From NCBI GenBank assembly GCA_964506115.1, contig CAZDKI010000004.1, forward strand, positions 13,280-77,279: DNA of 64,000 nucleotides, in the 5' to 3' direction. The position numbers and the translations under genes were made by a program. Positions 7,441 to 44,680 of the stretch are shown piece by piece. The stretch is from an uncultured Candidatus Peribacteria bacterium (GTDB lineage Bacteria; Patescibacteriota; Gracilibacteria; RBG-16-42-10). The notes under the pieces are model-generated. The model searched no databases. It worked only from the letters and a program-made list of their open reading frames with translations, and was not told the origin of the DNA. Positions within the stretch are counted from its first letter, which is position 1; each line of letters starts with the position of its first letter.

Positions 7441-8976
7441 ATGGCCGATTTACAGCGAATCTGTACTATTACTGGTAAGACATTTGTGATCACAGAAGCT
7501 GAGCAAGCTTTGATTGCTAAATTCGAACAGCTTCATCCTTTATTGAAGCCTGGTGATATTCCTTTGCCTACTATTCATCCACTAGAGTTCAGTAGACAAC
7601 TGCAAAGTTATGTCACTCTGATGAGTTTGTTTGATAGTAAGAGTGTTATTTCAGGACAGCCTTTAATTACTCGTTACAATCCTCGGTTAGGCTACAAAGT
7701 CTGTACGTCAGAAGAATTCTGGAGCGATGCTGTGGATAACACTAATGTTGGTAAACCTTATGACTTCTCTCGTCCATTTTTTGAACAGTGGAATGAACTC
7801 ATGCGCGAAGTGATAATGCAGCCACTTGTGCAAATCAGTTGCGAGAATAGCCACTATGTCGATAGCTCCTCTTCATTAAAGAATTGTTATCTCTGTTTTG
7901 GAATGGGGGATAGTGAAGATTGCATGTATTGTCTCAAGACTAGGTATCCTCTTCGTAATCGAGATTGTGTTGATTGTATTGGTATCGTGGATTGTGAGCT
8001 TTGTTATAGCTGTATTCACTGTGATCATGCCTATGATTGTCAGCATTGTAGTGACTGTATTGACTGTTACCAATGTTTTGGCTCTCGAGATCTGATTGGG
8101 TGTAAGTATTGTTTTGGTTGTGTGGGTTTGCGTCAGGCAGAGTATTATATTTTCAATCAAGCAGTTACTAAAGAGGCATATGACAACTTTATGAAACAAG
8201 CCAATTTAGGTAGTTACCAATCACGCCAGGGTTATTTGGAGCAATGTCGTCAATTTCACAAACAAAATCCTACGGTTGTTGCTACAATTAAACAGAGTGA
8301 AAATGCGTCAGGTAGTTATCTACAGCACTGTCGCAATGCTTATGAATGTGAATTTGGTGAAAATTTAGAGGATTGTGGTTGGTCTACAGGAGCTTTTGGT
8401 AAAGACATTTGGCGAGGAGAGGTGTATCAAGGAGAGCTTGGTTATCAGTCAGCAGTTTTGTCAGGTAGATTAGGTTTTTGTAACTCTATCAATACTGGTA
8501 GTGAAAACTTTTACAGTTATATGATTTGGGGCAGTAATAGCTGCTTTGGATGTGTGATGCTCAAGCAAAAATCCTATTGTATTTTGAATAAACAATATAC
8601 TAAGGCTGAATATGAAGAGTTAGTGCCACGAATTATCGCTCATATGAAAAGCACAGGTGAATGGGGGCAGTTTTTGCCAGCGAAGTATGCTCCGCATTAT
8701 TATGAAGAGTCGCAAGCGCACGAATTTCTAGATCAAAGAGCAAAGATCAAAGATCAGAGGTCTGGTGTCCAAACTCTAGATAAGCGTGAGTTAAGGTGTG
8801 AGGATGATATTGCTAATGTTGAAGTTGAGAAGGTGGATGGAATTGTTTGGGAATGTTGTTTGACTGGGAAACCATTTAAGCTAGTTCGGCAAGAAGTAGA
8901 ATTTTATCGTCAACAAAATATTCCTTTGCCACGTATTCATTGGCAAGAAAGACTTAAGCGTTTAAGGCTACGTTGA
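7441..8976 (+). CDS. cysteine-rich (CxxC-repeat) zinc-ribbon-like protein, uncharacterised family
   Basis: Central run of CxxC / CxxxxxC pairs (CYLCFG, CMYCLK, CVDCIG, CELCYSCIHCD, CQHCSDCIDCYQCFG, CKYCFGCVG). The N- and C-terminal ends both carry C(x)TGK.F modules. The ORF begins at a GTG at 7417; the ATG at 7441 is preferred. Confidence 0.6.
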   Translation: MADLQRICTITGKTFVITEAEQALIAKFEQLHPLLKPGDIPLPTIHPLEFSRQLQSYVTLMSLFDSKSVISGQPLITRYNPRLGYKVCTSEEFWSDAVDNTNVGKPYDFSRPFFEQWNELMREVIMQPLVQISCENSHYVDSSSSLKNCYLCFGMGDSEDCMYCLKTRYPLRNRDCVDCIGIVDCELCYSCIHCDHAYDCQHCSDCIDCYQCFGSRDLIGCKYCFGCVGLRQAEYYIFNQAVTKEAYDNFMKQANLGSYQSRQGYLEQCRQFHKQNPTVVATIKQSENASGSYLQHCRNAYECEFGENLEDCGWSTGAFGKDIWRGEVYQGELGYQSAVLSGRLGFCNSINTGSENFYSYMIWGSNSCFGCVMLKQKSYCILNKQYTKAEYEELVPRIIAHMKSTGEWGQFLPAKYAPHYYEESQAHEFLDQRAKIKDQRSGVQTLDKRELRCEDDIANVEVEKVDGIVWECCLTGKPFKLVRQEVEFYRQQNIPLPRIHWQERLKRLRLR

Positions 8977-12088: not shown

Positions 12089-12230
12089 TTCTCGCTAGGG
12101 TCTTAGCAGCAAATCGTCTTTGCTTTAATCGTTAATATGTCTTAATCTTTTTTAAGCCTTGATACCTGAGTTGATGGAGGCTGACTCTTTGTTTGTGAAC
12201 TCTTCTCAAAGGGACCCCTTTGGAGCAATT

Positions 12231-12253
12231 CTCTACTTTCAACTCTCAACTTG
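12231..12253 (-). repeat. GTTGA(A/G)A heptad word array overlapping the HD-gene stop codon
   Basis: The minus strand reads caaGTTGAGAGTTGAAAGTAGAG. The last codons Q-V-E-S and the TGA stop of the HD gene lie inside it. Confidence 0.5.
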
Positions 12254-12874: not shown

Positions 12875-12928
12875 ACGTAATAACTTATTGCTTCTACCTT
12901 ACTCTACTGGTCTCATTTCCTTCAACAT

Positions 12929-12957
12929 CTTTGATCTTTGCTCTCTGCTCTTTGAAC
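12929..12957 (+). repeat. CTTTGATCTTTGCTC / CTCTCTGCTCTTTGA word pair upstream of umuD
   Basis: The 15-mer ctttgatctttgctc (12929-12943) recurs reverse-complemented at 34610-34624. The 15-mer ctctctgctctttga (12941-12955) recurs at 34699-34713. Confidence 0.6.
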
Positions 12958-13028: not shown

Positions 13029-13412
13029 ATGAAAATTCCTTTTTTAAACAAAGTAGTTATGGCGGGATTCCCTAGTCCTGCTGCGGATTATCTGGAAAAA
13101 CCAATCAACCTTCATCAGTATTTGATTACTAATGAGCCTGCGACCTTTATGGCCAGAGTTGCTGGTGAATCGATGAAAGGAGCTGGGATATTTGCAGGCG
13201 ATATTGTCGTTATCGATCGGTCTTTAACGCCCATTTCTGGTCAAGTGATTGTTGCTATTCTTGATGGAGGATTAGTGGTGAAACAATGGATCGTCGAAGG
13301 AGAAAAGAAGTTTCTGCGCTCTGCAAATACGGATTATCCTGATGTAGTAATTACTGAGAGTAGTGACTTTTTGGTATGGGGAGTGGTCTCAGCTGTTGTG
13401 CGTAAGCTATGA
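13029..13412 (+). CDS. umuD: translesion polymerase V autoproteolytic subunit UmuD-like (S24 peptidase)
   Basis: GESMKGAGIFAGDIVVIDRS serine motif and VVKQW lysine (Ser-Lys dyad). 127 aa. ATGA overlap with the Y-family polymerase gene. Confidence 0.8.
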   Translation: MKIPFLNKVVMAGFPSPAADYLEKPINLHQYLITNEPATFMARVAGESMKGAGIFAGDIVVIDRSLTPISGQVIVAILDGGLVVKQWIVEGEKKFLRSANTDYPDVVITESSDFLVWGVVSAVVRKL

Positions 13413-14692: not shown

Positions 14693-14746
14693 TTGATAAT
14701 TTTAAAATCTAAATTAATCACGAGAGCTCTTGGACTAAATGAAACG

Positions 14747-14848
14747 GGATCCTTCGCCGCCGCTACGCTTTACTCAGGATGAATTATGAGCCTCAACGCC
14801 TGAGGCTTGAGTTGCTTGATAATTCATCCTGAGCGTAGTCGAAGGATC
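14747..14848. terminator. inverted pair of GGATCCTTCG...CTCAGGATGAATT modules (long hairpin between convergent genes)
   Basis: The left arm ggatccttcgccgccgctacgctttactcaggatgaatt and right arm aattcatcctgagcgtagtcgaaggatc are complementary apart from indels. A central gcctca-acgcc-tgaggc hairpin lies between them. The element sits between the umuC stop and the convergent gene's stop. Confidence 0.7.
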
Positions 14849-14858
14849 TGGTCTACAC

Positions 14859-15275
14859 TTAGTTTGATATTTTCGTTAAATCTTCATGAATGATAATTGG
14901 CTTCACTGATTCTATCTCTGTTTTATAGTAAGCAATCTCCGGAATATCATTCCATAAGTAGACTTTTTGTTTCAGTACATGAGCGAATCCGATCTCGATC
15001 AAAGTGTTGCCACCGATGTAATTTTTGATGCCGTTTTTGTCTAAATTCAAAACTAATACTGCATCACCACCTTGCATCAAATTCCAAAACTCGGTTAGGG
15101 GATCAGCATAGGTTTTTTGCTCAATTTTCACTGTCTCTTTTTCTTGATCAGTTTTACCCACAAAGTGGGGAGCAAAGGAGGTGACATACGCTTGATGTCC
15201 TAAAACTTGCAGTTGATCTCGCACTACTAACATTGCTTCGGTATATTGCATGCTACCGATTACCCCTATCCGCAT
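14859..15275 (-). CDS. nucleoside 2-deoxyribosyltransferase-like protein
   Basis: N-terminal MRIGVIGS Rossmann-like start and IGGNTLIEIGFAHVLKQKVYL, which resembles the GT..E.G.A..lgKpv motif with a catalytic Glu. Confidence 0.55.
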   Translation of the reverse strand: MRIGVIGSMQYTEAMLVVRDQLQVLGHQAYVTSFAPHFVGKTDQEKETVKIEQKTYADPLTEFWNLMQGGDAVLVLNLDKNGIKNYIGGNTLIEIGFAHVLKQKVYLWNDIPEIAYYKTEIESVKPIIIHEDLTKISN

Positions 15276-17582: not shown

Positions 17583-17734
17583 CGAATTGCCAATTGAGAA
17601 TTGCGAATGGCGAATTTTTAATGCAGTGGGCACAATTCAGAATGCACAATTGTTGCTCAGGTGTATCTAAGCGAGCCGCCACACTGGCGTAATGGAGTGC
17701 AACTTTCAACTCTCAACTTTCAATTTTCAACTTC
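17583..17734 (+). repeat. composite intergenic element (GCGAAT-type array ... TTCAAC-type array)
   Basis: cgaattgccaattgagaattgcgaatggcgaattttt (17583-17619), gcacaattcagaatgcacaattg (17630-17652) and aactttcaactctcaactttcaattttcaacttc (17701-17734). The end modules match the copies at 40028-40209 and 44503-44680. Confidence 0.6.
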
Positions 17735-20440: not shown

Positions 20441-20683
20441 ATGTATTATCTTTATATTTTAGAGTGTTCAGACTCGACTCTTTATACGGGGATTACCGTT
20501 GATCTTGATCGCCGAGTGTTAGAACACAATACAGCGAAGAGTGGTGCTAAATATACCAAAGCTCGTCGGCCTGTGCGTTTGGTGTATTCGAAAAAATTTC
20601 GTAATCGATCATTGGCATCCAAAGCTGAAATTCACATGAAAAGGTTGTCACGAGCCCAGAAACTGGCATTAATACTATTTTGA
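20441..20683 (+). CDS. GIY-YIG nuclease family protein (small, stand-alone)
   Basis: MYYLYILECSDSTLYTGITVDLDRRVLEHN matches the GIY-YIG core. Confidence 0.8.
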   Translation: MYYLYILECSDSTLYTGITVDLDRRVLEHNTAKSGAKYTKARRPVRLVYSKKFRNRSLASKAEIHMKRLSRAQKLALILF

Positions 20684-25356: not shown

Positions 25357-26742
25357 TTAACCTTGCTTACTGAGCACAACGATGTTTTCGATATGGTAGG
25401 TGTGGGGAAACATATCTACGGGTTGGATATGCTCAATACTATAACCAGCTGCAACTAAAAGTTTCACATCACGTGCTTGAGTAGTTGGGTTGCAAGAGAT
25501 GTAGACAAGCTTTTTTAGGGGCATCGCAATAATTTCAGCAACCGCTTCTGGCAGTAAACCAGCCCGTGGTGGGTCGACAATGGCAATAGTAGGGGAGAGT
25601 TTGAGTTGATTGAGTACCTGGCCTGCGTCACCTACATGGAATTGAGCATTAGGGCAGTTATTTTTCGTCGCATTTTCTTGGGCACTTTTGATGGCGTCAG
25701 GCACATTATCAATGCCGATGACTTGTTTAGCCTGGCGACTAGCGAATAATCCCAATGTGCCGGTGCCACAATAGAGATCTAACACTATGTCCTGGTTAGT
25801 AATACCAGCATAGCGAAGTGCATGTTGATAAAGTAATACTGCTTGACGGGGATTGGGTTGAAAAAAAGCTTCAGGATAAATATCGAAGTGCAAGGTTTGC
25901 CAAGGCTGCTCAAGAGCTAACTCTTCAGCGATGAATGCAGCTCCCCACAAGTGGGTACTGGTACGAGTTGTGGGCTTACCTTTTTCACTAATGATTTGGG
26001 TATGTAAAGCGCTTTTGATGTTGGCAATTGCAGTTGTTTTTTCTTGTAAACTATCGATGTTAGTTAATTTCCCTTTTCGAGAGATTATATGGATCATGAA
26101 TTCCTCTTTTTGATTGTGACGAATCACGACATTGGTTAATAAACCTTGATCGCTGCGTGGTTCGTAAATAGGAATGTTATTTTCCTGTACCCAAGCAATG
26201 ATTGCTTTGACTAAAAGCGCATAACTTGGATGAGGAAGGAAACATGTTTGTAAATCAATCACATCGTAGTGATAGCCTTTAGGATGCAGACCTAAAAGAT
26301 TTCGTTGGTTCGCATCAATGGCGAAACTAAACTCCATTTTGTTGCGGTAATACCAAGGTTCAGTACAACCAATAATTGGGGAGATAGGGAAGTCTTTGAT
26401 TCCACCTAAATGCTCTAAACTTTCAGTAACGATATGCTGTTTATAAAAAAGCTGATCTTCATATGAAAGAAACTGCCATGTGCAGCCACCACAAGTACCA
26501 AAATGAGGACATTTAGCTGCTATTCTCCTCGCTGAGGGTCTGAGGATCTCTACTATTTTGCCTTCAGCAAAGTTATTCTTTTTCTTAGTAATACGAATAC
26601 TCACTTCGTCTCCAGGTACTGATTCAGGAATGAATATTTTCAAACCTTCATATTCAGCAATACCCAAGCCACCGAATGCTAGTTTTTGGATGGAACACGT
26701 AATAATTTGGTGTTTTTTGAGAGACATAGTATTTAAATTCAA
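25357..26742 (-). CDS. rlmD: 23S rRNA (uracil-C5)-methyltransferase RlmD/RumA family
   Basis: N-terminal TRAM-like domain, Cys cluster CPHFGTCGGCTWQ, SAM motif DLYCGTGTLG, and the DPPRAGL and ISCNPTT motifs. Confidence 0.8.
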   Translation of the reverse strand: MNLNTMSLKKHQIITCSIQKLAFGGLGIAEYEGLKIFIPESVPGDEVSIRITKKKNNFAEGKIVEILRPSARRIAAKCPHFGTCGGCTWQFLSYEDQLFYKQHIVTESLEHLGGIKDFPISPIIGCTEPWYYRNKMEFSFAIDANQRNLLGLHPKGYHYDVIDLQTCFLPHPSYALLVKAIIAWVQENNIPIYEPRSDQGLLTNVVIRHNQKEEFMIHIISRKGKLTNIDSLQEKTTAIANIKSALHTQIISEKGKPTTRTSTHLWGAAFIAEELALEQPWQTLHFDIYPEAFFQPNPRQAVLLYQHALRYAGITNQDIVLDLYCGTGTLGLFASRQAKQVIGIDNVPDAIKSAQENATKNNCPNAQFHVGDAGQVLNQLKLSPTIAIVDPPRAGLLPEAVAEIIAMPLKKLVYISCNPTTQARDVKLLVAAGYSIEHIQPVDMFPHTYHIENIVVLSKQG

Positions 26743-26799
26743 AATTCAGAGTTCAGAATGCAGAATTGAAGAGTGATGGCGAAGATTAAGATGCGTAGG
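26735..26799 (+). repeat. 7-nt periodic word array
   Basis: The array reads cagagtt cagaatg cagaatt gaagagt gatggcg aagatta agatgcg. It lies in the divergent intergenic region between rlmD and the receiver gene. Confidence 0.5.
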
Positions 26800-26910
26800 T
26801 GTTGTCTGGTCGGCGTTCTACGGTGAGGATTGTAATAGAATTGGTGGTTTTGTGAATAGGTTGATTCTCTGCCGTGATTCAGTTATAAATCTACTTCGAA
26901 TTATTTGATC

Positions 26911-27291
26911 ATGTCTCACGCTGAAAGTTTAAAACAGGTATTAGTGATAGATGATGATGGTGCTTTTCGGTTCCTTGTTAGAGAGCTACTGCTTGAAGTA
27001 GTCACTGTGTCGGCCGAAGCGATAAATTTTGATCAGGCTATGGGTGCTCTTAATCAAGTTCCTAATAGCACGGGGGTAATTTGTGATCTGAAATTAACTC
27101 TAAAGGGAGAGGAAGGTCTTGTAATCTTGGAGAGGGCTGTACGTTTGGGGTTTCGTGATTTGATTTTGTTTACAACTATGCCTGGGGCAGTATCTCAACA
27201 GTGGCAGAAACAATTTCCTCATGTAGTTATAGTAGAAAAGGGTAATAATGATTCACTCATTACTGCAGTTAGCAAATGGTCTAGGTCATAG
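26911..27291 (+). CDS. stand-alone response-regulator receiver-like domain protein
   Basis: VLVIDDDGAFRFLVRELL, VICDLKL and LILFTT follow the CheY-like beta-alpha pattern. No output domain and no adjacent histidine kinase. Confidence 0.5.
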   Translation: MSHAESLKQVLVIDDDGAFRFLVRELLLEVVTVSAEAINFDQAMGALNQVPNSTGVICDLKLTLKGEEGLVILERAVRLGFRDLILFTTMPGAVSQQWQKQFPHVVIVEKGNNDSLITAVSKWSRS

Positions 27292-28074: not shown

Positions 28075-28228
28075 CGATCGCGATCAGCGATCGTCTTCGT
28101 CATGTCCTTCGTCTAACCTCATCGTGTCTTCCTTTAAGTCGGCTTATTTAGCGCGATCGAAGAATAAGCATAAGACGAAGACGTAGGATAGGTTAAGATT
28201 AAAGATTAGATTAGGAGTGAGGAGGTAC
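28075..28228. repeat. tRNA-Pro trailing structure: tight hairpin plus heptad-periodic pyrimidine and purine arms
   Basis: cgatcgc-gatca-gcgatcg (28075-28093). Then gtcttcg tcatgtc cttcgtc taacctc ... and later gaagacg taggata ggttaag attaaag attagat taggagt gaggagg. The gtcttcgtc / gacgaagac core is complementary. Confidence 0.5.
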
Positions 28229-34394: not shown

Positions 34395-34604
34395 ATGATT
34401 ATGAATTGTAACATTGGCCTCAAGCACAAAATAATGCGTGCTGTATTTGGTTTTATAATTAATCTAGCATTAATTCTTTTCCAATCTTCTTTACCAGTTT
34501 GGCTATTTTGGGTGGGGGTCGTGGTGAGTTATGTTGTGATTTTTCAAGGGGTAATTGGTGTTTGTTACTTTTATAGCCTGTTGGGTATTAAAAAAATGAA
34601 CTGA
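34395..34604 (+). CDS. small two-TM membrane protein (DUF2892/YgaP-like)
   Basis: 69 aa with two hydrophobic helices and GVIGVCYFYSLLGI near the C-terminus, as in DUF2892. Weak call. Confidence 0.4.
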   Translation: MIMNCNIGLKHKIMRAVFGFIINLALILFQSSLPVWLFWVGVVVSYVVIFQGVIGVCYFYSLLGIKKMN

Positions 34605-34609
34605 GGGAC

Positions 34610-34717
34610 GAGCAAAGATCAAAGTGCAGAGATTAGATGTGTATTGGTGTCCATGTTTCCAGTCTGTACTTTGAACTTTTCCACTACTTTGCTCTCGCCT
34701 CTCTGCTCTTTGATCTG
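34610..34717. repeat. inverted heptad-word arms upstream of the RRM gene
   Basis: gagcaaa gatcaaa gtgcaga gattag (34610-34636) faces ctttgctctcgcctctctgctctttgatctg (34687-34717). Two 15-mers are shared with 12929-12955. Confidence 0.5.
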
Positions 34718-34832
34718 AATTGACTTTCTTTGCTCCAGGAGTATATTTACGTCGGTTTGTGTACGTTCACCAAGGTTTCTTTGAAAGGTCTGCGGTGTAT
34801 ACTCAAGCCGCATATCTTTAACCCATTATGCT

Positions 34833-35144
34833 GTGTCTAATGTTTCTAATGCCGGCGGTGATGACACCCAAGGTAAAAAGTTGTTTGTTGGTGGACTTCC
34901 TTACAGTATGACATCTGATCAAGTTCAGGCTCTGTTTACAGATGCTGAAGACATGAATCTTGCTGTTACTTCTGTATATCTTCCAGTTGATCGTTTACAA
35001 GGCAATCGCCCTCGTGGTTTTGGCTTTGTAGAATTCGCTACTGCTGAAGATGCACAAAAAGCTATTGCTAAATTCAATGGTTTTGATGTTCAAGGTCGCA
35101 AATTGACTGTGAACGAAGCTCGTCCTCAACAAGCTCGTAACTAA
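34833..35144 (+). CDS. RRM-type RNA-binding protein
   Basis: RNP2 KLFVGGL and RNP1 RGFGFVEF. GTG start as given in the ORF track. Confidence 0.8.
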   Translation: MSNVSNAGGDDTQGKKLFVGGLPYSMTSDQVQALFTDAEDMNLAVTSVYLPVDRLQGNRPRGFGFVEFATAEDAQKAIAKFNGFDVQGRKLTVNEARPQQARN

Positions 35145-37072: not shown

Positions 37073-37519
37073 ATGTACCGTCAAAATGTGGCTGCAGTAG
37101 TGATTAATCATGATAAACAAGTGCTTGTTTGTAAACGTAATGTTCCTCAAGAGCATTGGCAGTTTCCACAAGGTGGTGTTGATGAACACGAAAGTGAAGA
37201 GCAAGGTCTTTTACGTGAACTCCAAGAAGAATTAGGTTCCACTAAGTTCTCGTTACTTTACAAGTCCAAGCATCTGTATCGTTTTGAATGGCCCAAGAAT
37301 CAGCTTCGTAATGATGGCTTAATTGGCCAAGAACAACGTTATTACTTAGTTTTATTTTGGGGGGTAGACAGTGAGCTCAATTTAGAACAACGCTCTTTGA
37401 CTGATTTTAAATGGGTTGAACTTTCAGAAGTGATTGAAACTGTTTTTCCCACCCGTCGCCAAATCTACGAGGCTATTTTGCAAGAATTTATCCCTGTCAT
37501 TAAAGTTGCATCTACATGA
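37073..37519 (+). CDS. Nudix hydrolase (RppH-like)
   Basis: Nudix box QFPQGGVDEHESEEQGLLRELQEELG. Confidence 0.8.
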   Translation: MYRQNVAAVVINHDKQVLVCKRNVPQEHWQFPQGGVDEHESEEQGLLRELQEELGSTKFSLLYKSKHLYRFEWPKNQLRNDGLIGQEQRYYLVLFWGVDSELNLEQRSLTDFKWVELSEVIETVFPTRRQIYEAILQEFIPVIKVAST

Positions 37520-37524
37520 ATACA

Positions 37525-37634
37525 ATTGAAAGTGGAAAGTTGAAAGTTGAAATTTTTACTCCAGTGAGCAGCATGTCAGTAGGATCCTTCCCTTGCAAAA
37601 GCGACCTCAGGATGACTGACTCAATTCGCAATTC
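37525..37634 (-). repeat. composite intergenic element, short copy
   Basis: attgaaagtggaaagttgaaagttgaaattttt (37525-37557), ggatccttcccttgcaaaagcgacctcaggatga (37582-37615) and caattcgcaattc (37622-37634). Confidence 0.6.
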
Positions 37635-40026
37635 TAAAGGATGGTTGGTGTCTTTATGTATTGTTCTAGTAGCATTGGGTAATAATGTTGCTTCAGTACA
37701 AGCTAGTGATTCATTTCCTGATGTCTCTGCTGAATATCAATTTAGTCAGAGTATTCAGGTTTTGAAGGATCGTCATATTGTACAGGGTTTTCCAGATGGT
37801 ACTTTTGGACCTAATCGCTTAATCACTCGTGCTGAACTGCTTAAGATTGCTTTAGAGGGAGCTGGTGTGGCTACTGCTAATTTTGCTCAAAAAAACTCAC
37901 CGTTTCCTGATGTGTCTGCCGGGCATAGTTTGAGACAATATGTGATTTATGCTCAAGAACAAAGTATAGTCAGTGGTTATCCTGATGGTACTTATCGTCC
38001 TGATGATCCTACTAGTCGTGGAGAGGCAATTAAGATGTTGCTTAATATCAATAATGTCGCTACGGCCAGTGGTGCAGCATTTACTTGGCAGTATCAAGAT
38101 GTCGATAATGAAGACCCTCTGGCTCGTTTTGTCTATGCGGCTCGTGATCAAAAGGTGATTCCTAATAAGTATAAAGTAAATACCTTGGGTATTGGGGACA
38201 AAATTACTCGTGGCGAAGTAGCGGAGATGATGTATCGTTTGCTGACTTTACGTGAACAACGTCTCAATCAATTTCCTGAAGTAACGCAAGATATTGCTGT
38301 GGTGGCTGGAGCGTATCCTACTACTACTTTTACTAATGTTACTTTACAAGCGACCTTGCCTAAGACCATGGTGGCGCATACTTATTATGCGATCAATGCT
38401 ACGACTTCAGCGAGTATGGTTAAGTTACTTTTACAGAATGAGGCTGGTAAGCAGTGGTTATGGGAGTACAAGCCAGATCAAGGTAAAGTACGCTTCGATC
38501 TCCAATTTCCAGATGCTGGTACTTATAAAGTAGCTATTATTGCTGACAATGTGACCAAGGCGGCGTCTGTACCAGTGGCTGTTCGTAGTAATTGGAATGA
38601 AGTTTTGACTGATCCCTTACCTGCAGTCACCAGCCCACAATTTGTGGCTGCTGAGACTAATTTGACTACTCTGTCTTGGACTGGTGAGAAGCAAAATGTG
38701 GTAGTGAAACTGGTATGTGAACAAGGATCAAAGTCTGTTGAGAGATTTATTGTTAGTCCTGATCAAAAATGGCAATTAGACTATCAAATATTTGCTGGTT
38801 TTGGAGAAGGTGCTGTTAATTGTCGCTTGGCCCAATCTCAATTTAACTCTAGTTTTAGTTTGACTAAACAATGGAGTCCTACTACTAACTGGTCTTTTGA
38901 TGCCATTGAACATCATTTCCGCACTTGGATAAAAAACAATATATCAGTAGATACTTTGCCACTTTTTACGCGCGCAAGTCAGCTTACATTTACGGGTAAA
39001 GCCAGTATCCCACTTTCCAACTTTGCAGCTGTAATCAACCCTGATGGTTCAGTAAAAGTATTTCCACTAGGTGAACCCGAAAGCCAAACATTTGCTTCCA
39101 ATAAGCCTTGGTCTTTGCCAGTAGATCTCAGTAAAGATGGCGTCTACTTCTTGGAAATCAATGATACTCAAGGTATTGCTGTCCTGAATACCCCTATTTA
39201 TAAAGTAACAGGTATTCCAGTACTGCCAGACTTTGTCGATATGCAATCAGGTCTAGTGATTGAGCAAAAGAGCACTATTACCGGTCAACAGAAACAAGCA
39301 ATGATGCAAGATCTAGTTACCAGGATCAATGCTGTGCGATCAGCACAAGGAAAGAATCCAGTAACTCTTGATAGTGATTTGAGTCGTTTTGCCCAAGCTC
39401 ATGCTGACGATATGGTCGCTCAAGATTATTTCTCTCACCGTGATCGTGCTGGCAAGGGACCAGATGAACGTAAATTGCCATTCAATATTCTGCAGCCAGT
39501 AGGGGAGAATATTGCTTTTAGTGTGGATATCCCTGATGTCGATGCTGGTCTCCGTCGTAGTGCGGTGCATTTACTTAATATTTTGGATTCACGTTGGTCT
39601 CGTGTCGGTATTGGTTTAGCTAGAGCAAAGGATGGTTTGTTGTATGCAGTGGAAGAGTTCTCTACGCGATCATTTATTGCCAGTCCTTTTACTGACACTG
39701 AAAAAGAACAGCTCGCTCAAAGAACTCTCGATCGTATCAATGTCAATCGCCAATCAGCTGGACTCAGTCCACTCTTACGTGGTACCGAATTCCGAGCAGC
39801 GATGTTGAGTTGGGCTACTGCGCCTAGGAGCACCAATCTCCGCACAGCTTTACTTGATGCCGGTTTAGGTCAAGGTAGACTACTTAGCTCAGAAGGTGAC
39901 TATTCAGCAAACTTACCAGCTGAGCTTGCTCTCCAAGCAGCTGTTTCTGAGACGTCTATTACTAGAATGGACATGGCTGTTAGTTTTGAAGGAGAAAAAA
40001 TGCTAGTAGCGGTACTTCTCTATTAA
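37612..40026 (+). CDS. secreted SLH-domain / CAP (SCP, YkwD-like) domain protein
   Basis: Signal/TM WLVSLCIVLVALG. SLH repeats FPDVSAEYQF...TRAELLKIAL and FPDVSAGHSL...SRGEAIKMLL. C-terminal CAP motif AQAHADDMVAQDYFSHRD...GENIAF. The ORF opens at 37516, but its first 32 codons are repeat sequence. Confidence 0.7.
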   Translation: MTDSIRNSKGWLVSLCIVLVALGNNVASVQASDSFPDVSAEYQFSQSIQVLKDRHIVQGFPDGTFGPNRLITRAELLKIALEGAGVATANFAQKNSPFPDVSAGHSLRQYVIYAQEQSIVSGYPDGTYRPDDPTSRGEAIKMLLNINNVATASGAAFTWQYQDVDNEDPLARFVYAARDQKVIPNKYKVNTLGIGDKITRGEVAEMMYRLLTLREQRLNQFPEVTQDIAVVAGAYPTTTFTNVTLQATLPKTMVAHTYYAINATTSASMVKLLLQNEAGKQWLWEYKPDQGKVRFDLQFPDAGTYKVAIIADNVTKAASVPVAVRSNWNEVLTDPLPAVTSPQFVAAETNLTTLSWTGEKQNVVVKLVCEQGSKSVERFIVSPDQKWQLDYQIFAGFGEGAVNCRLAQSQFNSSFSLTKQWSPTTNWSFDAIEHHFRTWIKNNISVDTLPLFTRASQLTFTGKASIPLSNFAAVINPDGSVKVFPLGEPESQTFASNKPWSLPVDLSKDGVYFLEINDTQGIAVLNTPIYKVTGIPVLPDFVDMQSGLVIEQKSTITGQQKQAMMQDLVTRINAVRSAQGKNPVTLDSDLSRFAQAHADDMVAQDYFSHRDRAGKGPDERKLPFNILQPVGENIAFSVDIPDVDAGLRRSAVHLLNILDSRWSRVGIGLARAKDGLLYAVEEFSTRSFIASPFTDTEKEQLAQRTLDRINVNRQSAGLSPLLRGTEFRAAMLSWATAPRSTNLRTALLDAGLGQGRLLSSEGDYSANLPAELALQAAVSETSITRMDMAVSFEGEKMLVAVLLY

Positions 40027-40027
40027 T

Positions 40028-40209
40028 AATTGCGAAGTGCGAATGGCGAATTTTAGGCATGAGACTTCATAATTCAATCGAACTTTATGTCTGCCGGATC
40101 CTTCGACTTCACAGCGTTACGTTCAGGATGAATTGATAGGCTATTGGTGCTTTCCTGAAACTCCAGTGCTTATCAAACTCTCAACTTTCCACTTTCAATT
40201 TTCAACTTC
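40028..40209 (+). repeat. composite intergenic element, full copy
   Basis: aattgcgaagtgcgaatggcgaatttt (40028-40054), cttcataattc, ggatccttcgacttcacagcgttacgttcaggatgaatt (40096-40134) and aactctcaactttccactttcaattttcaacttc (40176-40209). Module-by-module match to the reverse complement of 44503-44680. Confidence 0.7.
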
Positions 40210-40214
40210 ATTCA

Positions 40215-41282
40215 ATGGGCAAACTATCTTATTCAGCACTGGAGACATTTCGTACCTGTCCTTTGAAATATAAGTTTGCTTATATTGATAAGATTCCTGT
40301 GACTCAAAGTGGAGTGATGCAGTTTGGCTCTTTGATCCATAAAGTAATGGAAGAGCTCTACGCCCATCAGATGTTGCCCATTAGTAAAGAAGAGCTGATT
40401 CATCTATTTAGTGCTCAATGGAAGCCGAAGCTTTATAAAGACGAGTATCAAGCACAATCTGATTTTGAATCTGGCGTCGCTATCGTTGAACGTGAATGGG
40501 AGAAGAAACAAGCTCAACCTGAACCAGTTACTATCGCTCGGGAGAAATACTTTTTGTTACCAATAGCTGAAGGTTTTGATCTTTCTGGTCGTATCGATCG
40601 TATTGATAAAATTGGTGATAATAGTTTGGAGATTATTGATTATAAAACTGGGAGGACCGTCCCTAGTGAAGCGGAAGTGCGGAATAATTTACAGTTGTCG
40701 ATTTATTATTTTGCTTTATTGAAGCTTTGGCCTAGTACACAGCAAGTAACTCTTTCTTTGTATTATTTACGGCCTGATATGAAGGTTAGTTTCGTAGCAG
40801 AGCCTGACTTGCTCGAACAGGCGAAAGAAACCTTGCGTGATTTAGTAGAGCAAATTCGCACTACCAATTATGCGCCAACCCCTGGAAGACATTGTGACTA
40901 CTGTGATTTTAGGCCTCATTGTCCGATGATGAAGCATAGCAGTGATGCACAAGCTAGACCTGATGATCCTGTAGTTGTCGAAGGCAGTTTTTTAGCTGAT
41001 CGTTATTTAGCTTTGATGAATGAAAAACGTACTCTTACTGAACAAGTCGACGCTACCAAAGAAGCGATTGGCCAGTATTTAGATGCTACTGGTTATGCGC
41101 AGCTGTCCGGTAAACAGGGAGCTGTCCGTCGCATTGTGACCAAGACAAAACGATTGCAGGGGAAAAAGGTTCAAGAGTATTTGGCTAGTCAAAATGTATT
41201 GGAGCAGTTTGTCGAAACGAGTGAGTCTACTAGACTAATAGCACAGGAAAAGAAGATCCCTGATATCGAAGAAATTGTATGA
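40215..41282 (+). CDS. PD-(D/E)XK nuclease with Cas4/AddB-type Fe-S cysteines
   Basis: N-terminal TCPLKYKF. GRIDRIDKIGDNSLEIIDYKTGR (D...ExK). QLSIYYFAL (QxxxY). CDYCDFRPHCP completes a C...CxxCx5C set. Confidence 0.75.
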   Translation: MGKLSYSALETFRTCPLKYKFAYIDKIPVTQSGVMQFGSLIHKVMEELYAHQMLPISKEELIHLFSAQWKPKLYKDEYQAQSDFESGVAIVEREWEKKQAQPEPVTIAREKYFLLPIAEGFDLSGRIDRIDKIGDNSLEIIDYKTGRTVPSEAEVRNNLQLSIYYFALLKLWPSTQQVTLSLYYLRPDMKVSFVAEPDLLEQAKETLRDLVEQIRTTNYAPTPGRHCDYCDFRPHCPMMKHSSDAQARPDDPVVVEGSFLADRYLALMNEKRTLTEQVDATKEAIGQYLDATGYAQLSGKQGAVRRIVTKTKRLQGKKVQEYLASQNVLEQFVETSESTRLIAQEKKIPDIEEIV

Positions 41283-42202
41283 AATTGCTGATTTATGGTG
41301 ATGATACTGCTTTAGTAGCTACGAGAATTCTGGAATTGAAACAGCACTTTCTTAAAAATAATAGCGACAGTGAAGTAATAGCGATCCGGGCTGATGATAT
41401 GCCCGAGCCAGAACAAGTAGTAGACATGTTTGCTACTCAGCCACTCTGGGGAGGGAAGAAATGTTTTATCTTGCATGGTTTTCTCTCGCAGTCGTGGAAA
41501 GGGGAATATCAACCAATATGGGACTGGATAGAAGCAATGCCCACTGATCATGTCTTGTTCTTCGTGGAGTATGCCAATGATGCTGCTACTAAAATTAAGC
41601 GGGTGGTAAAATGGCTAGAGTCAGGTGAACTGACTACTAAGCTGATGTTTGCTTGTGCCAAGGGTAAAGGGATTAAATCTGGACTAAAATTAACAGCGTC
41701 ACAACAGAATTATTTAGATCAAGTGTATAGCCTAGATCCATTGATGGCTTATCAAGAGCTACGTAAAGCACATCTGCTCACTGATGCCAATCGTAGTGAT
41801 TTAATTGATGCTGTTTTTAATCAACCAGAATTTTCTACTTCGATTTTCCGTCTTACTGATACAGTATTTGCCCGTAATGCTGCTGGTGCGTTGGCTACAG
41901 TGCAAGATTTATTGGCTCAAGGTGAAAATGAATTTATGCTACTGAGTATGTTGATTGGTCATATCAAAAAAATAGTCTTTATTCTGGATGCTGAGAGTCA
42001 AGGGGGGGCTAGTCAGGATGTGCTCAAGAAACTGAAAGTCCATCCTTTTGTAGCCAAGAATTTAATGAAACAAAAAACTTTATTTCGTCTGGATCAAGCC
42101 AAGCAGTGGCTACAAATATTACTAGAAGTCGATTTGCAATCTAAGCAGGGGAAAGTAGATGCCAAAGTAGCTCTAGAGCAGTTTTGTGTTAGTATAGGAT
42201 AG
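41279..42202 (+). CDS. holA: DNA polymerase III delta subunit-like (HolA)
   Basis: Size, N-terminal LIYGDD, and helical C-terminal part (LLSMLIGHIKKIVFI) resemble HolA. Overlaps the nuclease gene stop. Moderate call. Confidence 0.55.
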   Translation: MKLLIYGDDTALVATRILELKQHFLKNNSDSEVIAIRADDMPEPEQVVDMFATQPLWGGKKCFILHGFLSQSWKGEYQPIWDWIEAMPTDHVLFFVEYANDAATKIKRVVKWLESGELTTKLMFACAKGKGIKSGLKLTASQQNYLDQVYSLDPLMAYQELRKAHLLTDANRSDLIDAVFNQPEFSTSIFRLTDTVFARNAAGALATVQDLLAQGENEFMLLSMLIGHIKKIVFILDAESQGGASQDVLKKLKVHPFVAKNLMKQKTLFRLDQAKQWLQILLEVDLQSKQGKVDAKVALEQFCVSIG

Positions 42203-42220
42203 GCTTATATATTGAGATTT

Positions 42221-42607
42221 ATGCTGCAGAAGAAGTGGCAAGAACATTTATCGATGCGGGCCTTATTAGGAGTCTGTATAGCACTAGCTATTTATCAGAT
42301 GTACACCTATGCGGTCAAAAGCTATCAAGATTTTCAAATCAATCAGCAGATTCACCAAAGTGAAGAGGAGATTGCTAATTTGGAGCGAGACAATCGCGCA
42401 ATGCAGGAGTATTTGAAGTTTTTGGATACCGAAACGTACAAAGAAAAAGAGGCAAAGCGCATTAAAAATGTACAGAATCCTGGTGAAGAAGTCTTTGTAA
42501 TTAAGCAAGCAGGTTTAGAAAAGGTACAGTCGGTAGAGGATCAAGCTGCTCAGAGCTGGCAAGATCTGACTCCTCAGCAGAAATGGTGGCGATTTTTCTT
42601 ACGTTAA
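42221..42607 (+). CDS. septum formation initiator (FtsB/DivIC-like)
   Basis: Single TM LLGVCIALAIYQMY followed by coiled coil EEEIANLERDNRAMQEYLKFL. Confidence 0.55.
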   Translation: MLQKKWQEHLSMRALLGVCIALAIYQMYTYAVKSYQDFQINQQIHQSEEEIANLERDNRAMQEYLKFLDTETYKEKEAKRIKNVQNPGEEVFVIKQAGLEKVQSVEDQAAQSWQDLTPQQKWWRFFLR

Positions 42608-42615
42608 TTTGATTT

Positions 42616-43788
42616 ATGAACACTCCGCATGTGGTTTTGAAAATGGGTAGAGAACAGTCAGTACTCAAGTCCCATCCGTGGATTTTCTCTGGTGGTATTG
42701 CCCAAGTAGCTGCCAATAATGGTGATATTGTGGACATCTATGATGGTAGACAGACATGGTTAGCAAAAGGCTATTATCATAGTAAAAATACGATTGCTTG
42801 TCGGATTCTTACTCGTAAACCTGATGAACAAATTGATGAGGTTTGGTTACTCAATCGTCTCCGATCTGCTTATGAAAGAAGAAGAGAATTCCTCACCAAT
42901 ACTAATGCTTATCGCTTAATCTTTGGTGAAGCAGATGAATTGCCTGGTTTGATTGTAGATATTTATGATCAAGTAGCGGTGATTCAGATTTCTACTTTGG
43001 GCATGGACCAGTTTCGTCAGCGTTTAGTAGATCTTTTACCAAAAGTACTTGATCTGGTAGCAATTTATGAACGTAGTGACATTGATGGTCGTTCAATTGA
43101 AGGATTAAAAGAAGCAAAAGGGTTATTGTGGGGGGAGTTGCCACAGGTACTAACTATTTTTGAAGGACAAGCTCGATTTGTGGTAGATGTGGAACATGGT
43201 CAAAAAACAGGATTCTTTTTGGATCAACGTGCTAACCGCCAAGGGATTGGGCAGTATGTAAAAGGGAAAAAAGTATTGAATACATTTTCGTATACTGGTG
43301 CTTTTAGCATTCATGCTGGTTTAGCTGGTGCTAAAGAGATCACTTCAGTAGATAGTTCACGAGCAGCGATTGATCAGTGCAAGCTGAATATGGGAATGAA
43401 TGAGATTGTGAGTACTCATTATGAAGTGTGTGAAGATGTGTTTCATTATCTCAAAGTAGTTGATCAGAAATTTGATGTGATTATTTTGGATCCTCCCGGT
43501 ATGGTGAAATCTAAAAAAGATCTGCAAGCGGGGACGAATGCTTATCGTGTACTACATCAATTAGCTTTGAAGAAATTATTGCCAGGTGGCATTTTGATTA
43601 CTTCATCGTGTTCTGGTTGGGTAGACCGATTACTCTTCCATAAGCTCGTATTCTGGGCTTGTGAAAAAGAAGGATTGAATCTCCGCATGATTGAAGAACA
43701 TGGACATACTTGGGATCATCCACTTTCCATTTTCTTTCCAGAAGGAGAATACCTTAAATATGCTGTGTATCAGCAACCACAGAGTTAG
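42616..43788 (+). CDS. rlmI: class I SAM-dependent rRNA methyltransferase (RlmI/RlmK-like, PUA N-domain)
   Basis: HPWIFSGGI N-terminal PUA-like start. GLIVDIYDQVAVIQ. SAM motif VLNTFSYTGAFS. DPPGMVKSKKD. Confidence 0.75.
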   Translation: MNTPHVVLKMGREQSVLKSHPWIFSGGIAQVAANNGDIVDIYDGRQTWLAKGYYHSKNTIACRILTRKPDEQIDEVWLLNRLRSAYERRREFLTNTNAYRLIFGEADELPGLIVDIYDQVAVIQISTLGMDQFRQRLVDLLPKVLDLVAIYERSDIDGRSIEGLKEAKGLLWGELPQVLTIFEGQARFVVDVEHGQKTGFFLDQRANRQGIGQYVKGKKVLNTFSYTGAFSIHAGLAGAKEITSVDSSRAAIDQCKLNMGMNEIVSTHYEVCEDVFHYLKVVDQKFDVIILDPPGMVKSKKDLQAGTNAYRVLHQLALKKLLPGGILITSSCSGWVDRLLFHKLVFWACEKEGLNLRMIEEHGHTWDHPLSIFFPEGEYLKYAVYQQPQS

Positions 43789-44119: not shown

Positions 44120-44125
44120 ACTCTA

Positions 44126-44318
44126 GTTGAAAGTTGAAAGTTTCTTTAGCTAGATGGTTCTATTAAGGACTACCAACTAATTCATCCTGAGCGAAACGAA
44201 GTGGAGTCGAAGGATCTGGCTGGTTTATAGTTATTCCAAACAAAGTATCGGCCGGATGCTTCGACAGGCTCAGCATGGATTTATTGTGCATGTCACCCTG
44301 AGAGTAATCGAAGAGCTG
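44126..44318. repeat. heptad array plus three GGATCC/CAGGATGA-type modules (mixed orientation)
   Basis: gttgaaagttgaaagtttc (44126-44144), aattcatcctgagcgaaacgaagtggagtcgaaggatc (44179-44216), degenerate ggatgcttcgacaggctcagcatgga (44254-44279) and tcaccctgagagtaatcgaagagctg (44293-44318). Confidence 0.6.
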
Positions 44319-44353
44319 CACTCTAAATCCTGAATTTTTGTGTACAACAAAAT

Positions 44354-44502: not shown

Positions 44503-44680
44503 GTTGAAAGTTGAAAATTGAAAGTTTTGCAAGCATAGGGGGGCATCTTGAGATCACCAATCAATTCATCCTGAACGGAACGGAGTGGAGTTGAATGATC
44601 TGGCTGACATGCAACTCGGGAGAATTATGAAGCCAGGTGCCCGTGGCCAAAATTCGTCATTCGCACTTCGCAATTCGCGG
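44503..44680 (-). repeat. composite intergenic element, full copy (reverse orientation)
   Basis: gttgaaagttgaaaattgaaagttttgc (44503-44530), aattcatcctgaacggaacggagtggagttgaatgatc (44563-44600), gaattatgaag, and aaaattcgtcattcgcacttcgcaattcgcgg (44649-44680). Confidence 0.7.

Follow-up and report, generated by a model that had tools for sequence, protein, structure and literature searches.

Intergenic heptad arrays in an ultra-small Patescibacteria genome and their association with hairpin and PF05635 modules

Intergenic repeats with a 7-nt unit, recognised in cyanobacteria since 1990 and subsequently in Xanthomonas and Beggiatoaceae, have to our knowledge no accepted explanation. The words of the cyanobacterial families STRR1-3 are CCCCAGT, TTGGTCA and CAACAGT. 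The rRNA intervening sequences of Leptospira, Coxiella and others carry an ORF for an S23p/PF05635 four-helix bundle.

The heptamer repeats described to date, a known and unexplained class (PMC4692102, PMC4679880), include cyanobacterial STRR, Xanthomonas GGGAATC and Nostoc GGGGA(T/C)T (Rehm et al. 2015, PMC4692102). Heptamers are reported to be over-represented in many bacteria (PMC4692102), a general trend credited to Mrazek 2007 as cited there. Direct repeats of TAACTGA are found, with a patchy phylogenetic distribution, in marine Beggiatoaceae, cyanobacteria and Bacteroidetes, and MacGregor proposed for them an S1-bound leader role (MacGregor 2015, PMC4679880). In Neisseria, spacers contain mosaics of dRS3/NTS hairpins, and the genes of the Ssn proteins, which are small GIY-YIG ssDNA nucleases, have NTS/SRM hairpins on both sides (Chenal et al. 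2025, PMC11893778).

The window studied here, a stretch of 64,000 nt, belongs to an ultra-small, Gracilibacteria/Peribacteria-like Patescibacteria MAG (G000) of 1.27 Mb at 98.6% completeness, with no assembled rRNA. It was compared with a sister species (G001), a congener (G002) and further relatives (G003/G004). Arrays were detected with TRF, five dinucleotide-preserving shuffles served as controls, and genes were called by a crude longest-ORF rule. An earlier note on this DNA had likened its heptads to STRR, a comparison that is right in kind, intergenic heptamer repeats being a known class, and wrong as to the host, which is not a cyanobacterium, and the words, which differ. Taken literally, as a heterocystous cyanobacterial source or a repeat system shared by descent, the likeness is already refuted by taxonomy and its probability is practically nil. 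Equal unit length, intergenic position and a GC content of about 40%, noted as a shared trait, speak for it; against it stand the best protein matches, to Ca. Gracilibacteria MAGs (61%) and Peribacteria/Peregrinibacteria MAGs (about 41%), the size and completeness of the genome, and the dominant words AAAGTTG, AATTCGC, AATTCAG and AACTCTC, none of which is an STRR word. No STRR1-3 word occurs among the 40 most frequent of the 48 canonical words. Our literature search found no paper describing heptamer repeats in Patescibacteria.

Period-7 arrays and their words

The 7-nt periodic runs reported from the spacers are real, as TRF identified 173 period-7 arrays in the genome against 25-42 in the shuffles (~32 expected), with no genome-wide excess over shuffles at periods 8, 10 and 11. 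The arrays are mostly intergenic (133 of 173, 77%). Comparison with dinucleotide shuffles, which the earlier note had named as the test that could refute it, gave, for same-base matches in spacers genome-wide, z=21.5 and z=9.9 at offsets of 7 and 14 nt, respectively, and z=6.0 at offset 7 in the spacers of the window alone; coding sequence genome-wide had no offset-7 same-base signal. The window contains 14 of the TRF arrays, and its relevant features, including copies of a hairpin core described below, are as follows.

12226..12251, plus strand: CAACTCT/CAACTTT array with a CCCTTTGG/GGGACCCC hairpin module before it (TRF)
12927..12955, plus strand: ATCTTTG/CTCTTTG-type array in the divergent spacer before 13029-13412 (TRF)
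14729..14868, no strand assigned: two cores forming an inverted, REPIN-like doublet within a convergent spacer (nhmmer)
17583..17733, plus strand: CGAATTG array (17583-17616) and CAACTTT array (17700-17733) around a non-core centre (TRF); the pair lies between two minus-strand genes and is thus antisense to its flanking genes
26736..26767, plus strand: array singled out in the earlier note, AATTCAG-type heptads x4.6, G-rich on the plus strand (TRF)
26768..26799, minus strand: non-array, a conserved remnant of a 79-codon ORF, covering its 3' end with the stop region; G001 has the ORF intact (orthologous alignment)
28170..28228, plus strand: degenerate purine-rich heptad block after tRNA-Pro, below the TRF threshold
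34610..34712, plus strand: weak heptad arms GAGCAAA GATCAAA GTGCAGA ... CTCTGCTCTTTGATC, an inverted repeat below the TRF threshold, upstream of an RRM gene (34833-35144, Pfam)
37526..37552, plus strand: TTGAAAG array (the B family on its G-rich strand), then a core-like GGATCC...CAGGATGA segment (TRF)
40028..40052, plus strand: A-type array AATTGCG AAGTGCG AATGGCG AATT, directly 3' of the stop codon of gene 37516-40026
40067..40137, plus strand: ~70-nt hairpin core (...GGATCCTTCGAC...GTTCAGGATGAATTGA), one of 117 copies (nhmmer, alignment, covariation)
40176..40208, plus strand: B-type array AACTCTC AACTTTC CACTTTC AATTTTC AACTT, G-free (TRF)
44125..44232, minus strand: AGTTGAA array (44125-44142) and core copy (44178-44232, minus), adjoining tRNA-Met
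44503..44678, minus strand: second full composite in opposite orientation, with GTTGAAA array (44503-44526), core (44560-44630, minus) and AATTCGC array (44651-44678) (TRF, nhmmer)
54162..54237, plus strand: complementary array pair TTTCCTA x3.9 (54162-54187) and AGGAAAC x2.9, predicted to form a hairpin with a roughly 20-bp stem (TRF), between tRNA-Thr and a PF05635 gene (54299-54658, Pfam)

Among the loci first given as examples, TRF recovers arrays at 26736-26767, 40028-40052, 44503-44526 and 54218-54237, and those at 34610 and 28190 fall below its threshold. The run originally read from 26735 to 26799 is an array over its first ~32 nt; the remainder was over-read, and the intact ORF to which it corresponds in G001 has no Pfam match. 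This array ends 8 nt upstream of the ATG (26727) of a minus-strand TRAM/methyltransferase gene (25357-26727), and therefore reads as a G-poor sequence (AATTCTG...) in the leader of that gene.

The observation is partly confirmed, a further departure being that loci do not each use a word of their own. Canonical words recur genome-wide (AAAGTTG in 42 arrays, AATTCGC in 28, AATTCAG in 15 and AACTCTC in 14), these four families making up 57% of arrays, and whole arrays are repeated letter for letter. The 25-mer AATTGCGAAGTGCGAATGGCGAATT, which comprises three different heptads in a fixed order and is the array found at 40028..40052, has 11 exact copies in the genome and 18 within one mismatch, while the perfect (AATTGCG)x3 form has none and alternative heptad orders are nearly absent. 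Arrays are of narrow size, with 3-5 units and a median of 28 nt. A 21-nt super-period was rejected, between-unit identity being flat at lags 7, 14, 21 and 28. Among relatives, array density is patchy and the words differ.

The arrays are a variant of the intergenic heptamer repeats already known, with different words and with hairpin-linked modules. They share with the STRR, Xanthomonas and Nostoc heptamers the 7-nt unit, the strongly intergenic location, the over-representation compared with other long periods, a length that varies among close relatives and the occurrence of inverted pairs. They differ in their Patescibacteria host, in A/T-rich words that cannot form G-quadruplexes, in their small number of units (3-5), which are imperfect and keep a fixed order, and in being dispersed as whole modules joined to a conserved hairpin.

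Hairpin cores and their neighbouring genes

About 40% of arrays (69 of 173) lie within 150 nt of a 70-nt hairpin core, of which nhmmer detects 117 genomic copies. The core stem contains 88 double-change cells indicative of compensatory change, compared with a shuffle mean of 27.6 (maximum 41), and 78% of its cells are paired as opposed to 24-44% when the partner columns are slid. RNAalifold returned no consensus structure for 95 core copies, and the core structure rests on these pair counts. Arrays and core are joined in composites with the layout G-rich array, hairpin, C-rich array. With respect to genes, the cores are randomly oriented (30/27/26/23), and core doublets lie in convergent spacers. 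The suggestion that arrays often have their complement close by is borne out by a few pairs. As a rule, a G-rich array on the left is accompanied on the right by a C-rich one from a different word family, and G000 has few same-word complementary pairs (1 among about 30 pairs of neighbours).

Paired arrays could act as RNA hairpins, with stems at which transcripts end or are processed, for instance by RNase III in the manner of rRNA intervening-sequence stems. The predicted folds of 54150-54245 (z=-5.6 on the minus strand, z=-2.8 on the plus strand) and of 34600-34725 (z=-2.2) are consistent with such a role, as are the core doublets in convergent spacers and the PF05635 genes of relatives that stand between complementary arrays, the geometry of intervening sequences excised by RNase III. 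However, the dominant composites of A-type array, core and B-type array are no more stably folded than shuffles (z=-0.67, -0.27 and +0.20), values on which the whole composite as one long hairpin was rejected. No T-tracts follow the composites, a scan of 39900-44800 for sigma-70 promoters and terminators did not exceed shuffle expectation, divergent spacers have arrays just as often, and same-word inverted pairs are rare in G000. A general role in transcript ending or processing is decidedly unlikely, and the transcript-end structures once proposed for the arrays are retained for the few complementary pairs only.

The hairpin is a member of a class found across phyla, which in relatives brackets the genes of putative small GIY-YIG nucleases. 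Motifs of this class occur at 1.0/kb near (<=350 nt) the small GIY-YIG genes of relatives (25 in 24.8 kb) and at 0.11/kb farther away (6 in 53.8 kb); at the genes they are often inverted on both sides, and they are also present in unrelated contigs with a GC fraction of 0.35-0.64. One of the three small GIY-YIG genes in G000 has core-like motifs on both sides, while the three are not unusually close to the cores detected by nhmmer, and heptad arrays are not enriched beside GIY-YIG genes. The only Pfam match of the small proteins is GIY-YIG itself, and NCBIfam and PDB searches were uninformative.

The hairpin resembles Neisseria NTS in being a directional repeat with more than 100 copies and a loop that tolerates insertions, and its outline is near that of NTS (TCAT-CC...GG-ATC-TGG in G000 compared with GTCAT-TCC...GGA-ATC-YRG). 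As with Ssn and NTS, hairpins of one class stand on both sides of small single-domain GIY-YIG genes in relatives, and as in the Neisseria mosaics they are interspersed with short repeat modules of other kinds. The strict published SRM pattern HGTCWYN(0-2)YYVSBRHN(0-5)WNVSBRGN(0-2)RNCYNB has only two matches in G000, because the core loop holds an extra inner stem of 15-25 nt; relative to this pattern, the loop of the cores is longer and their stem richer in A/T. The G000 GIY-YIG proteins may belong to the Ssn clade (cd10448) and would then cut ssDNA next to the hairpin, and heptad arrays are no described part of the Neisseria system. Rfam matches in the window are tRNAs only, with nothing relevant at E<=1 in eight core-bearing contigs, and literature searches with the hairpin sequence gave only unrelated primer matches. 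Similar to REP/BIME and to the modular (A-Bn-C) pneumococcal BOX elements, the composites form high-copy intergenic mosaics of a hairpin and variable numbers of short modules, in either orientation and with doublets. The sequences are unrelated to those elements, and the repeat unit is 7 nt compared with 45 nt for boxB. A RAYT/REP system was rejected: PF01797 (the Y1/RAYT transposase) is absent from G000, control genomes being positive.

Arrays are concentrated at PF05635 genes, with 14 arrays within 150 nt of the gene ends (3.98/kb) compared with 0.35/kb elsewhere. In relatives, at least one array is present at 8 of 12 PF05635 loci, and complementary arrays flank the gene on both sides at 5 of 12. 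The G002 gene for the four-helix bundle lies between arms AAAGTTG.../...CAACTTT, which are the words of the G000 B family, and the G000 gene at 54299 has an array hairpin before it. PF05635 copy number correlates with strong-array density across relatives when phylogeny is ignored and each genome is sampled over only 30-80 kb (rho=0.60, p=0.009, n=18); strong arrays are found in 12 of 14 PF05635-positive genomes and in none of the 4 negative ones. As in rRNA intervening sequences, a PF05635 gene is flanked by inverted repeats that could pair into a long stem. Unlike those elements, the cassettes are found between protein-coding genes or downstream of tRNA genes and not in rRNA, their arms are heptad arrays, and most arm pairs in G000 are without a gene.

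Strand asymmetry and start codons

G-rich arrays outnumber C-rich ones in the left half of spacers (44 vs 16), and the reverse is true of the right half (18 vs 40; OR 6.1, p=7e-6). This order is kept in every spacer type, including after stop codons and in convergent spacers. Because the arrays run G-rich then C-rich, the strand beside a start codon is poor in G, in keeping with the G-depleted gene leaders of G000. Among the 40 arrays that lie <=40 nt upstream of an ATG-started ORF, G is less frequent than C in 33 and more frequent in 3, with sense-strand G at 5% and C at 25%. When B-type arrays are read as CAACTTT, an ORF follows within 60 nt in 34 of 63 cases, compared with 1 of 63 for the reverse complement. 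Twelve B-type arrays end 2-22 nt before an ATG; the array at 40176..40208 ends 6 nt before that of a PD-(D/E)XK gene at 40215.

The TAACTGA repeats are similarly heptamers, two to six in number, located a few nt upstream of the starts of unrelated genes and with a patchy distribution; in G000, too, heptads stand just upstream of starts in a setting where canonical RBS are rare. The word TAACTGA is absent among the recurrent canonical words of G000, which instead has several word families, and the G000 arrays are also found after stop codons, there with the opposite G/C skew, and are tied to hairpin and PF05635 modules undescribed in PMC4679880.

By analogy, G-free arrays of the CAACUUU type could serve as unstructured, S1-bound pads for Shine-Dalgarno-independent initiation. 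The position and base composition of the arrays before ATG codons favour this, and G000 indeed shows no Shine-Dalgarno signal and encodes a 4-domain S1 protein; the B array is moreover unpaired in the predicted fold. However, only about 3% of genes carry an array upstream of the start, and the symmetry of skew extends to sites after stop codons and to convergent spacers. Nor are the arrays conserved between orthologues. At the PD-(D/E)XK gene, G000 has a B array, G002 uses different words and G003/G004 lack an array, and the array before the ATG in G002 is the downstream arm of an inserted PF05635 cassette. We consider a translation-leader element unlikely.

Protein-binding sites served by a repeat-binding protein, another early proposal, are unsupported by the two candidates tested. 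The cold-shock domain binds 7 nt with the consensus GTCTTTG/T (PMC1904285), and a cold-shock protein was rejected as heptad reader as G000 has no PF00313 gene. An RRM protein was rejected likewise: 26 of 31 relatives have a member of the family, and array density is unrelated to it (0-58 per 100 kb in genomes with RRM, 6-24 in those without).

Turnover between species and possible origin

Comparison of orthologous spacers, as the earlier note had proposed, revealed arrays gained and swapped. Between G000 and G001, array indels measure 21, 21, 7 and 13+8=21 nt (four cases only), and the array at 26736..26767 is exactly 21 nt (3 heptads) shorter in G001. An indel of x7 length at 28170-28228 was dropped, as a cleaner alignment gives about 54 nt, the whole block being missing from G001. 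A composite was gained in the spacer of the PD-(D/E)XK gene, which measures only 6-15 nt in G003/G004, and composite interiors were swapped with the flanking arrays staying identical.

Slippage, also raised at the outset, fits the changes in array length (indels of 7, 21, 21 and 21 nt) and fails for origin and spread, given the absence of perfect repeats and the fixed 25-mer in 11 copies. In its full form the idea, taken from Mrazek 2007 as cited in PMC4692102, would make the arrays plain microsatellites, produced by in-place polymerase slippage with a 7-nt bias and without dispersal or function. The traits of generic heptamer SSRs as that citation gives them, a non-coding period-7 excess and whole-unit length change (four cases), are both found in G000, and the within-array indels in multiples of 7, the over-representation of heptamers in many bacteria (PMC4692102) and the patchy density with different words across relatives all agree with it. 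Against it, the 25-mer keeps its order where other orders are nearly absent, unit identity does not drop with distance, array size is narrow, arrays are associated with hairpin cores and with PF05635 genes, and the skew rule is strong. As a full account plain microsatellites are strongly disfavoured, and we hold them very unlikely.

The interpretation offered in the earlier note is partly supported overall. We lean, with slightly better than even confidence, towards heptad arrays being short, imperfect, fixed-sequence modules of a genome-wide intergenic mosaic repeat system composed of small, fast-changing, selfish-looking cassettes. The arrays would be arm or linker pieces of such cassettes, most G000 copies being gene-less; as complementary same-word pairs are rare in G000, we infer these gene-less arms from the relatives. 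They may spread by recombination or nuclease-linked copying, drift by slippage, and persist only in orientations compatible with unstructured, G-poor leaders, probably without a gene-specific regulatory role. It counts against the cassette reading that no mobilising enzyme or target-site duplication has been shown and that G000 has no RAYT-type transposase. A bolder proposal, which we regard as unlikely, is that arrays and SRM-like hairpin are two halves of one previously undescribed mobility system of ultra-small bacteria, in which PF05635 cassettes would insert by start codons between self-complementary heptad arms, the arms would form stems for processing or excision similar to those of rRNA intervening sequences, and Ssn-like GIY-YIG ssDNA nucleases would cut the hairpins and drive module exchange. 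If this were true, the 7-nt step would be a footprint of the machinery and not of generic polymerase slippage.

The fixed higher-order modules and the G-rich to C-rich symmetry in every spacer type provide handles on the heptamer problem, as do the physical links to PF05635 four-helix-bundle genes and small GIY-YIG nucleases, one linked family having recently been shown to act on hairpin repeats; if the links hold, the question of why the unit is 7 nt becomes testable at the bench. For annotation, the repeats break assemblies and mark a lineage that starts translation without Shine-Dalgarno sequences, and arrays extend ORF calls because the G-free ones contain no stop codons.

Period-7 arrays and their words

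TRF identified 14 period-7 arrays within the 64-kb window. In the source genome, a Candidatus Peribacteria assembly (G000; 1.27 Mb, 12 contigs, 40% GC, 98.6% complete), tandem repeats are most often of period 7, with 173 such arrays compared with 25-42 in dinucleotide-preserving shuffles (n = 5); no excess over shuffles was seen at periods 8, 10 and 11. Non-overlapping ORFs (≥80 aa; 88.8% of the genome) served as approximate genes, and by these crude calls the arrays are mostly intergenic (133/173). The frequency of the same base k positions apart was compared with dinucleotide shuffles, yielding z = 21.5 at lag 7 and 9.9 at lag 14 for the spacers of G000, while coding sequence gave no lag-7 signal in this test. 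The 39 window spacers alone reached z = 6.0, 3.8 and 3.7 at lags 7, 14 and 21. This confirms, genome-wide and in the window, the intergenic period-7 excess over such shuffles proposed by the earlier note. A total of 33 arrays lie wholly within the crude ORF calls (e.g. window 8730-8756), and some of these calls are probably over-extended and not truly coding, as G-free arrays contain no stop codons. A 30-nt tandem repeat at 2423-2524 (3.4 copies, 90% match), inside a 1143-aa ORF (1532-4963), looks like an ordinary coding repeat.

Intergenic heptamer repeats are known from the cyanobacterial STRR, Xanthomonas and Nostoc (PMC4692102), with TAACTGA repeats a further case (PMC4679880); we found no paper describing them in Patescibacteria. 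A cyanobacterial host was rejected, given that the TRAM-methyltransferase beside the array near 26735 best matches Ca. Gracilibacteria (61% to a MAG) and Peribacteria/Peregrinibacteria MAGs (approximately 41%). Translation table 11 yields long ORFs in G000, with TGA as the stop in 139/1098, and the standard genetic code therefore fits.

The arrays had previously been described as using a separate word at each locus, with letters drifting in a kept frame. Locus-specific words are refuted, as 99 of the 173 arrays use one of four canonical words (AAAGTTG, 42; AATTCGC, 28; AATTCAG, 15; AACTCTC, 14). Nor does the drift represent decay: a 25-mer of differing heptads, AATTGCG-AAGTGCG-AATGGCG-AATT, recurs in fixed order, with 11 exact copies in G000 and 18 at no more than one mismatch. 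Perfect (AATTGCG)x3 and permuted heptad orders are essentially absent from G000 at that same tolerance. Median array length is 28 nt, with 3-5 units in 117 of the 133 intergenic arrays, and unit-to-unit identity is constant, without a drop with distance. The run of heptads originally singled out, 26735-26799, is an array only at 26736-26767 (AATTCAG x4.6); 26768-26799 corresponds in alignment to the end of a 79-codon ORF, truncated in G000 but complete in the sister species G001 and without a Pfam match there. The ORF remnant occupies 26768-26860 (minus strand), the rest being replaced in G000 by the start of an opposite-strand gene (26911-27291).

Composites, the hairpin core and turnover

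A recurrent composite leads from a stop codon through an A-type array (GCGAATT-like, G-rich) and a short GGCNTCA-type run to a conserved hairpin of ~70 nt, the core, followed after 10-30 nt by a G-free B-type array (CAACTTT/CCACTTT/CAACTCT) and an ATG. Window examples are:

40028-40208, composite
44503-44678, composite, inverted

The core (consensus ...ATGTCGGCCAGATCCTTCGACTCCACTGCGTTTCGCTCAGGATGAATT...; window copy at 40067-40137) has 117 nhmmer hits in G000 and corresponds to no Rfam family. Its stem pairs change compensatorily, with 88 double-change cells compared with a shuffle mean of 27.6 (maximum 41) and 5-38 with slid partners.

Base pairs at four core stem positions (copies)
Pair 28-55: CG 95, GC 13
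Pair 29-54: CG 87, TA 14
Pair 33-50: GC 79, AT 15
Pair 39-45: AT 36, GC 25, TA 9

A core occurs within 150 nt of 69 of the 173 arrays, and an array near 59 of the 117 cores, core orientation with respect to flanking genes being random (30, 27, 26 and 23 over the four arrangements). Bases recurring at three or more other loci make up 13% of intergenic bases, and such modules are present in 185 of 682 spacers. Beside many cores, further recurrent modules are found, namely CTGCCAAACGCAGTGTCGGCAGG-type hairpins, the UUCG-type mini-hairpin GGGACCCCTTCGGGGCAAC and ...ACTCCAGTGAGCTACAATTCGC (e.g. at the G000 core flanks C1:145432+, C5:18119- and C3:70878+). Inverted composites at 40028-40208 and 44125-44678 flank a 4.3-kb block containing a PD-(D/E)XK nuclease gene, three more genes and tRNA-Met; given the random core orientation, this bracketing may be due to chance.

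Full composites fold no better than shuffles. A complementary array pair at 54150-54245 does fold (z = -5.6 for the minus and -2.8 for the plus strand), and only a few array pairs are both truly complementary and better folded than shuffles. That the arrays serve mainly as RNA hairpins or in processing appears quite unlikely.

Orthologous spacers show the turnover of words that had been suggested as a check, in the form of whole-heptad indels, composite gain and interior swaps. In G001 (same genus as G000, ~94% protein identity, 83-87% DNA identity), the array at 26736-26767 is shorter by exactly 21 nt, i.e. three heptads, and other within-array indels measure 21, 7 and 13+8=21 nt. The block at 28170-28228, entirely missing from G001, is about 54 nt and not a clean multiple of 7. 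A 188-nt composite preceding the PD-(D/E)XK gene is missing in two further relatives (G003/G004), where the gene gap is 6-15 nt, and the congener G002 has another spacer there, made of different heptads. Between G000 and G001, outer arrays can match exactly while the interior is a core in one and an unrelated module in the other. Whole arrays are thus dispersed as modules and change length by whole heptads, and modules are gained and swapped in orthologous spacers; that the arrays are pure in-place microsatellites is highly improbable. Among relatives, array words vary from lineage to lineage and period-7 density is patchy (58 per 100 kb in G012; 0-3 in G011, G014, G025 and G030). Assemblies break at the repeats: G001 is in 180 contigs with cores near contig ends, its contig C40 begins inside the PD-(D/E)XK gene, and several G000 contigs start with a core or array (C1:334-453, C8:248, C6:570).

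Base skew and translation starts

Read on the + strand, arrays are predominantly G-rich in the left half of spacers (44 vs 16) and C-rich in the right half (40 vs 18; odds ratio 6.1, p = 7e-6), with the same trend in tandem, divergent and convergent spacers. Where neighbouring arrays have opposite skew, the G-rich one always comes first (15/15 pairs), and the strand beside any start codon is therefore G-poor. Among the 40 arrays that precede an ORF starting with ATG by up to 40 nt, 33 contain less G than C and 3 contain more (mean G 5%). B-type arrays are followed by an ORF in 34/63 when read as CAACTTT and 1/63 when read as AAAGTTG. No Shine-Dalgarno signal was detected upstream of G000 ORF starts; the motifs GGAG, GAGG and AGGA are underrepresented between -15 and -1, where G frequency drops to about 0.1. 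Position -1 favours T, and A is preferred around -11. The assembly lacks a 16S rRNA and encodes a four-domain S1 protein. The G-poor arrays preceding ATG might be taken for a dedicated translational-leader element; we consider this unlikely, because orthologous genes do not keep the arrays and the same skew is seen after stop codons.

Nuclease and PF05635 genes beside the modules

The pattern GATCCTTCGAC-N8-24-CTCAGGATGAATT was found on 20 metagenome contigs (L178-L197), with freely varying inner stems. Eight of these are unrelated to G000 (GC 0.35-0.64) and have nothing else in common with it; the core is therefore a cross-phylum element and not a lineage-specific one. The core outline, (G/T)TCAT-CC...GG-ATC-TGG, is similar to that of the NTS hairpin in Neisseria, CGTCATTCCCGCG...GCGGGAATCYRG, on which SsnA, a small GIY-YIG ssDNA nuclease, acts as its target (PMC11893778). 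The published SRM pattern of the Ssn system has just 2 matches in G000. Small single-domain GIY-YIG genes of G000 are:

window 20441-20683, + strand
C5:77816-78097, core-like hairpins upstream and at the 3' end
C1:198134-198334, followed by complementary AAGAATA-type arrays

Relatives carry homologues of one of these proteins, that of the C5 gene, and the hairpin class is nine-fold enriched around them (up to 350 nt away), with 25 in 24.8 kb compared with 6 in 53.8 kb farther off; the hairpins are typically inverted, one on each side. No enrichment of heptad arrays was seen next to GIY-YIG genes; arrays and hairpins are therefore separate module types, concatenated in G000.

Arrays are found at PF05635 genes, which encode a four-helix-bundle protein. 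G000 contains two intact copies (window 54299-54658 and 57753-58115), the first preceded by an array hairpin (54162-54237), and one pseudogene. In relatives, 12 PF05635 loci together have 14 period-7 arrays no more than 150 nt from a gene end (3.98/kb vs 0.35/kb elsewhere), with at least one array at 8/12 and complementary arrays on both sides at 5/12. In G002, the cassette order is AGTTGAAAGTGGAAAGTGGAAAATTG - CCCCGAAGGGGTCCCTTCGGG - gene - CTTTCCACTCTCAACTTTCCACTTTCCACTTTTC - 12 nt - ATG of the next gene; its words are the G000 B words, accompanied by a small hairpin module also found with G000 B arrays. Across 18 sampled relatives, without phylogenetic correction, PF05635 copy number correlates with strong-array density (rho = 0.60, p = 0.009), and strong arrays occur in 0/4 PF05635-negative and 12/14 PF05635-positive genomes.

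Both PF05635 and GIY-YIG genes are thus bracketed in relatives. We infer, with slightly better than even confidence, that the arrays would be the arms or linkers of small, selfish cassettes whose gene has mostly been lost in G000, that they may have spread via recombination or nuclease-linked copying and drifted via slippage, and that they would be filtered such that leaders remain G-poor in a genome initiating without Shine-Dalgarno pairing. While the class of repeat is already known, specific to G000 are its three-part mosaic of array, hairpin and array, whose arms are non-complementary, the fixed order of heptads in higher-order modules, a skew rule that holds universally, and a hairpin apparently tied to an Ssn-like nuclease architecture.

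No gene with a cold-shock domain occurs in G000. Window 34833-35144 (+ strand) encodes an RNA-binding protein with a single RRM_1 domain, and a heptad-armed inverted repeat lies upstream of the gene; RRM genes occur in 26/31 relatives and, among 14 control genomes, only in one cyanobacterium and one Bacteroides.
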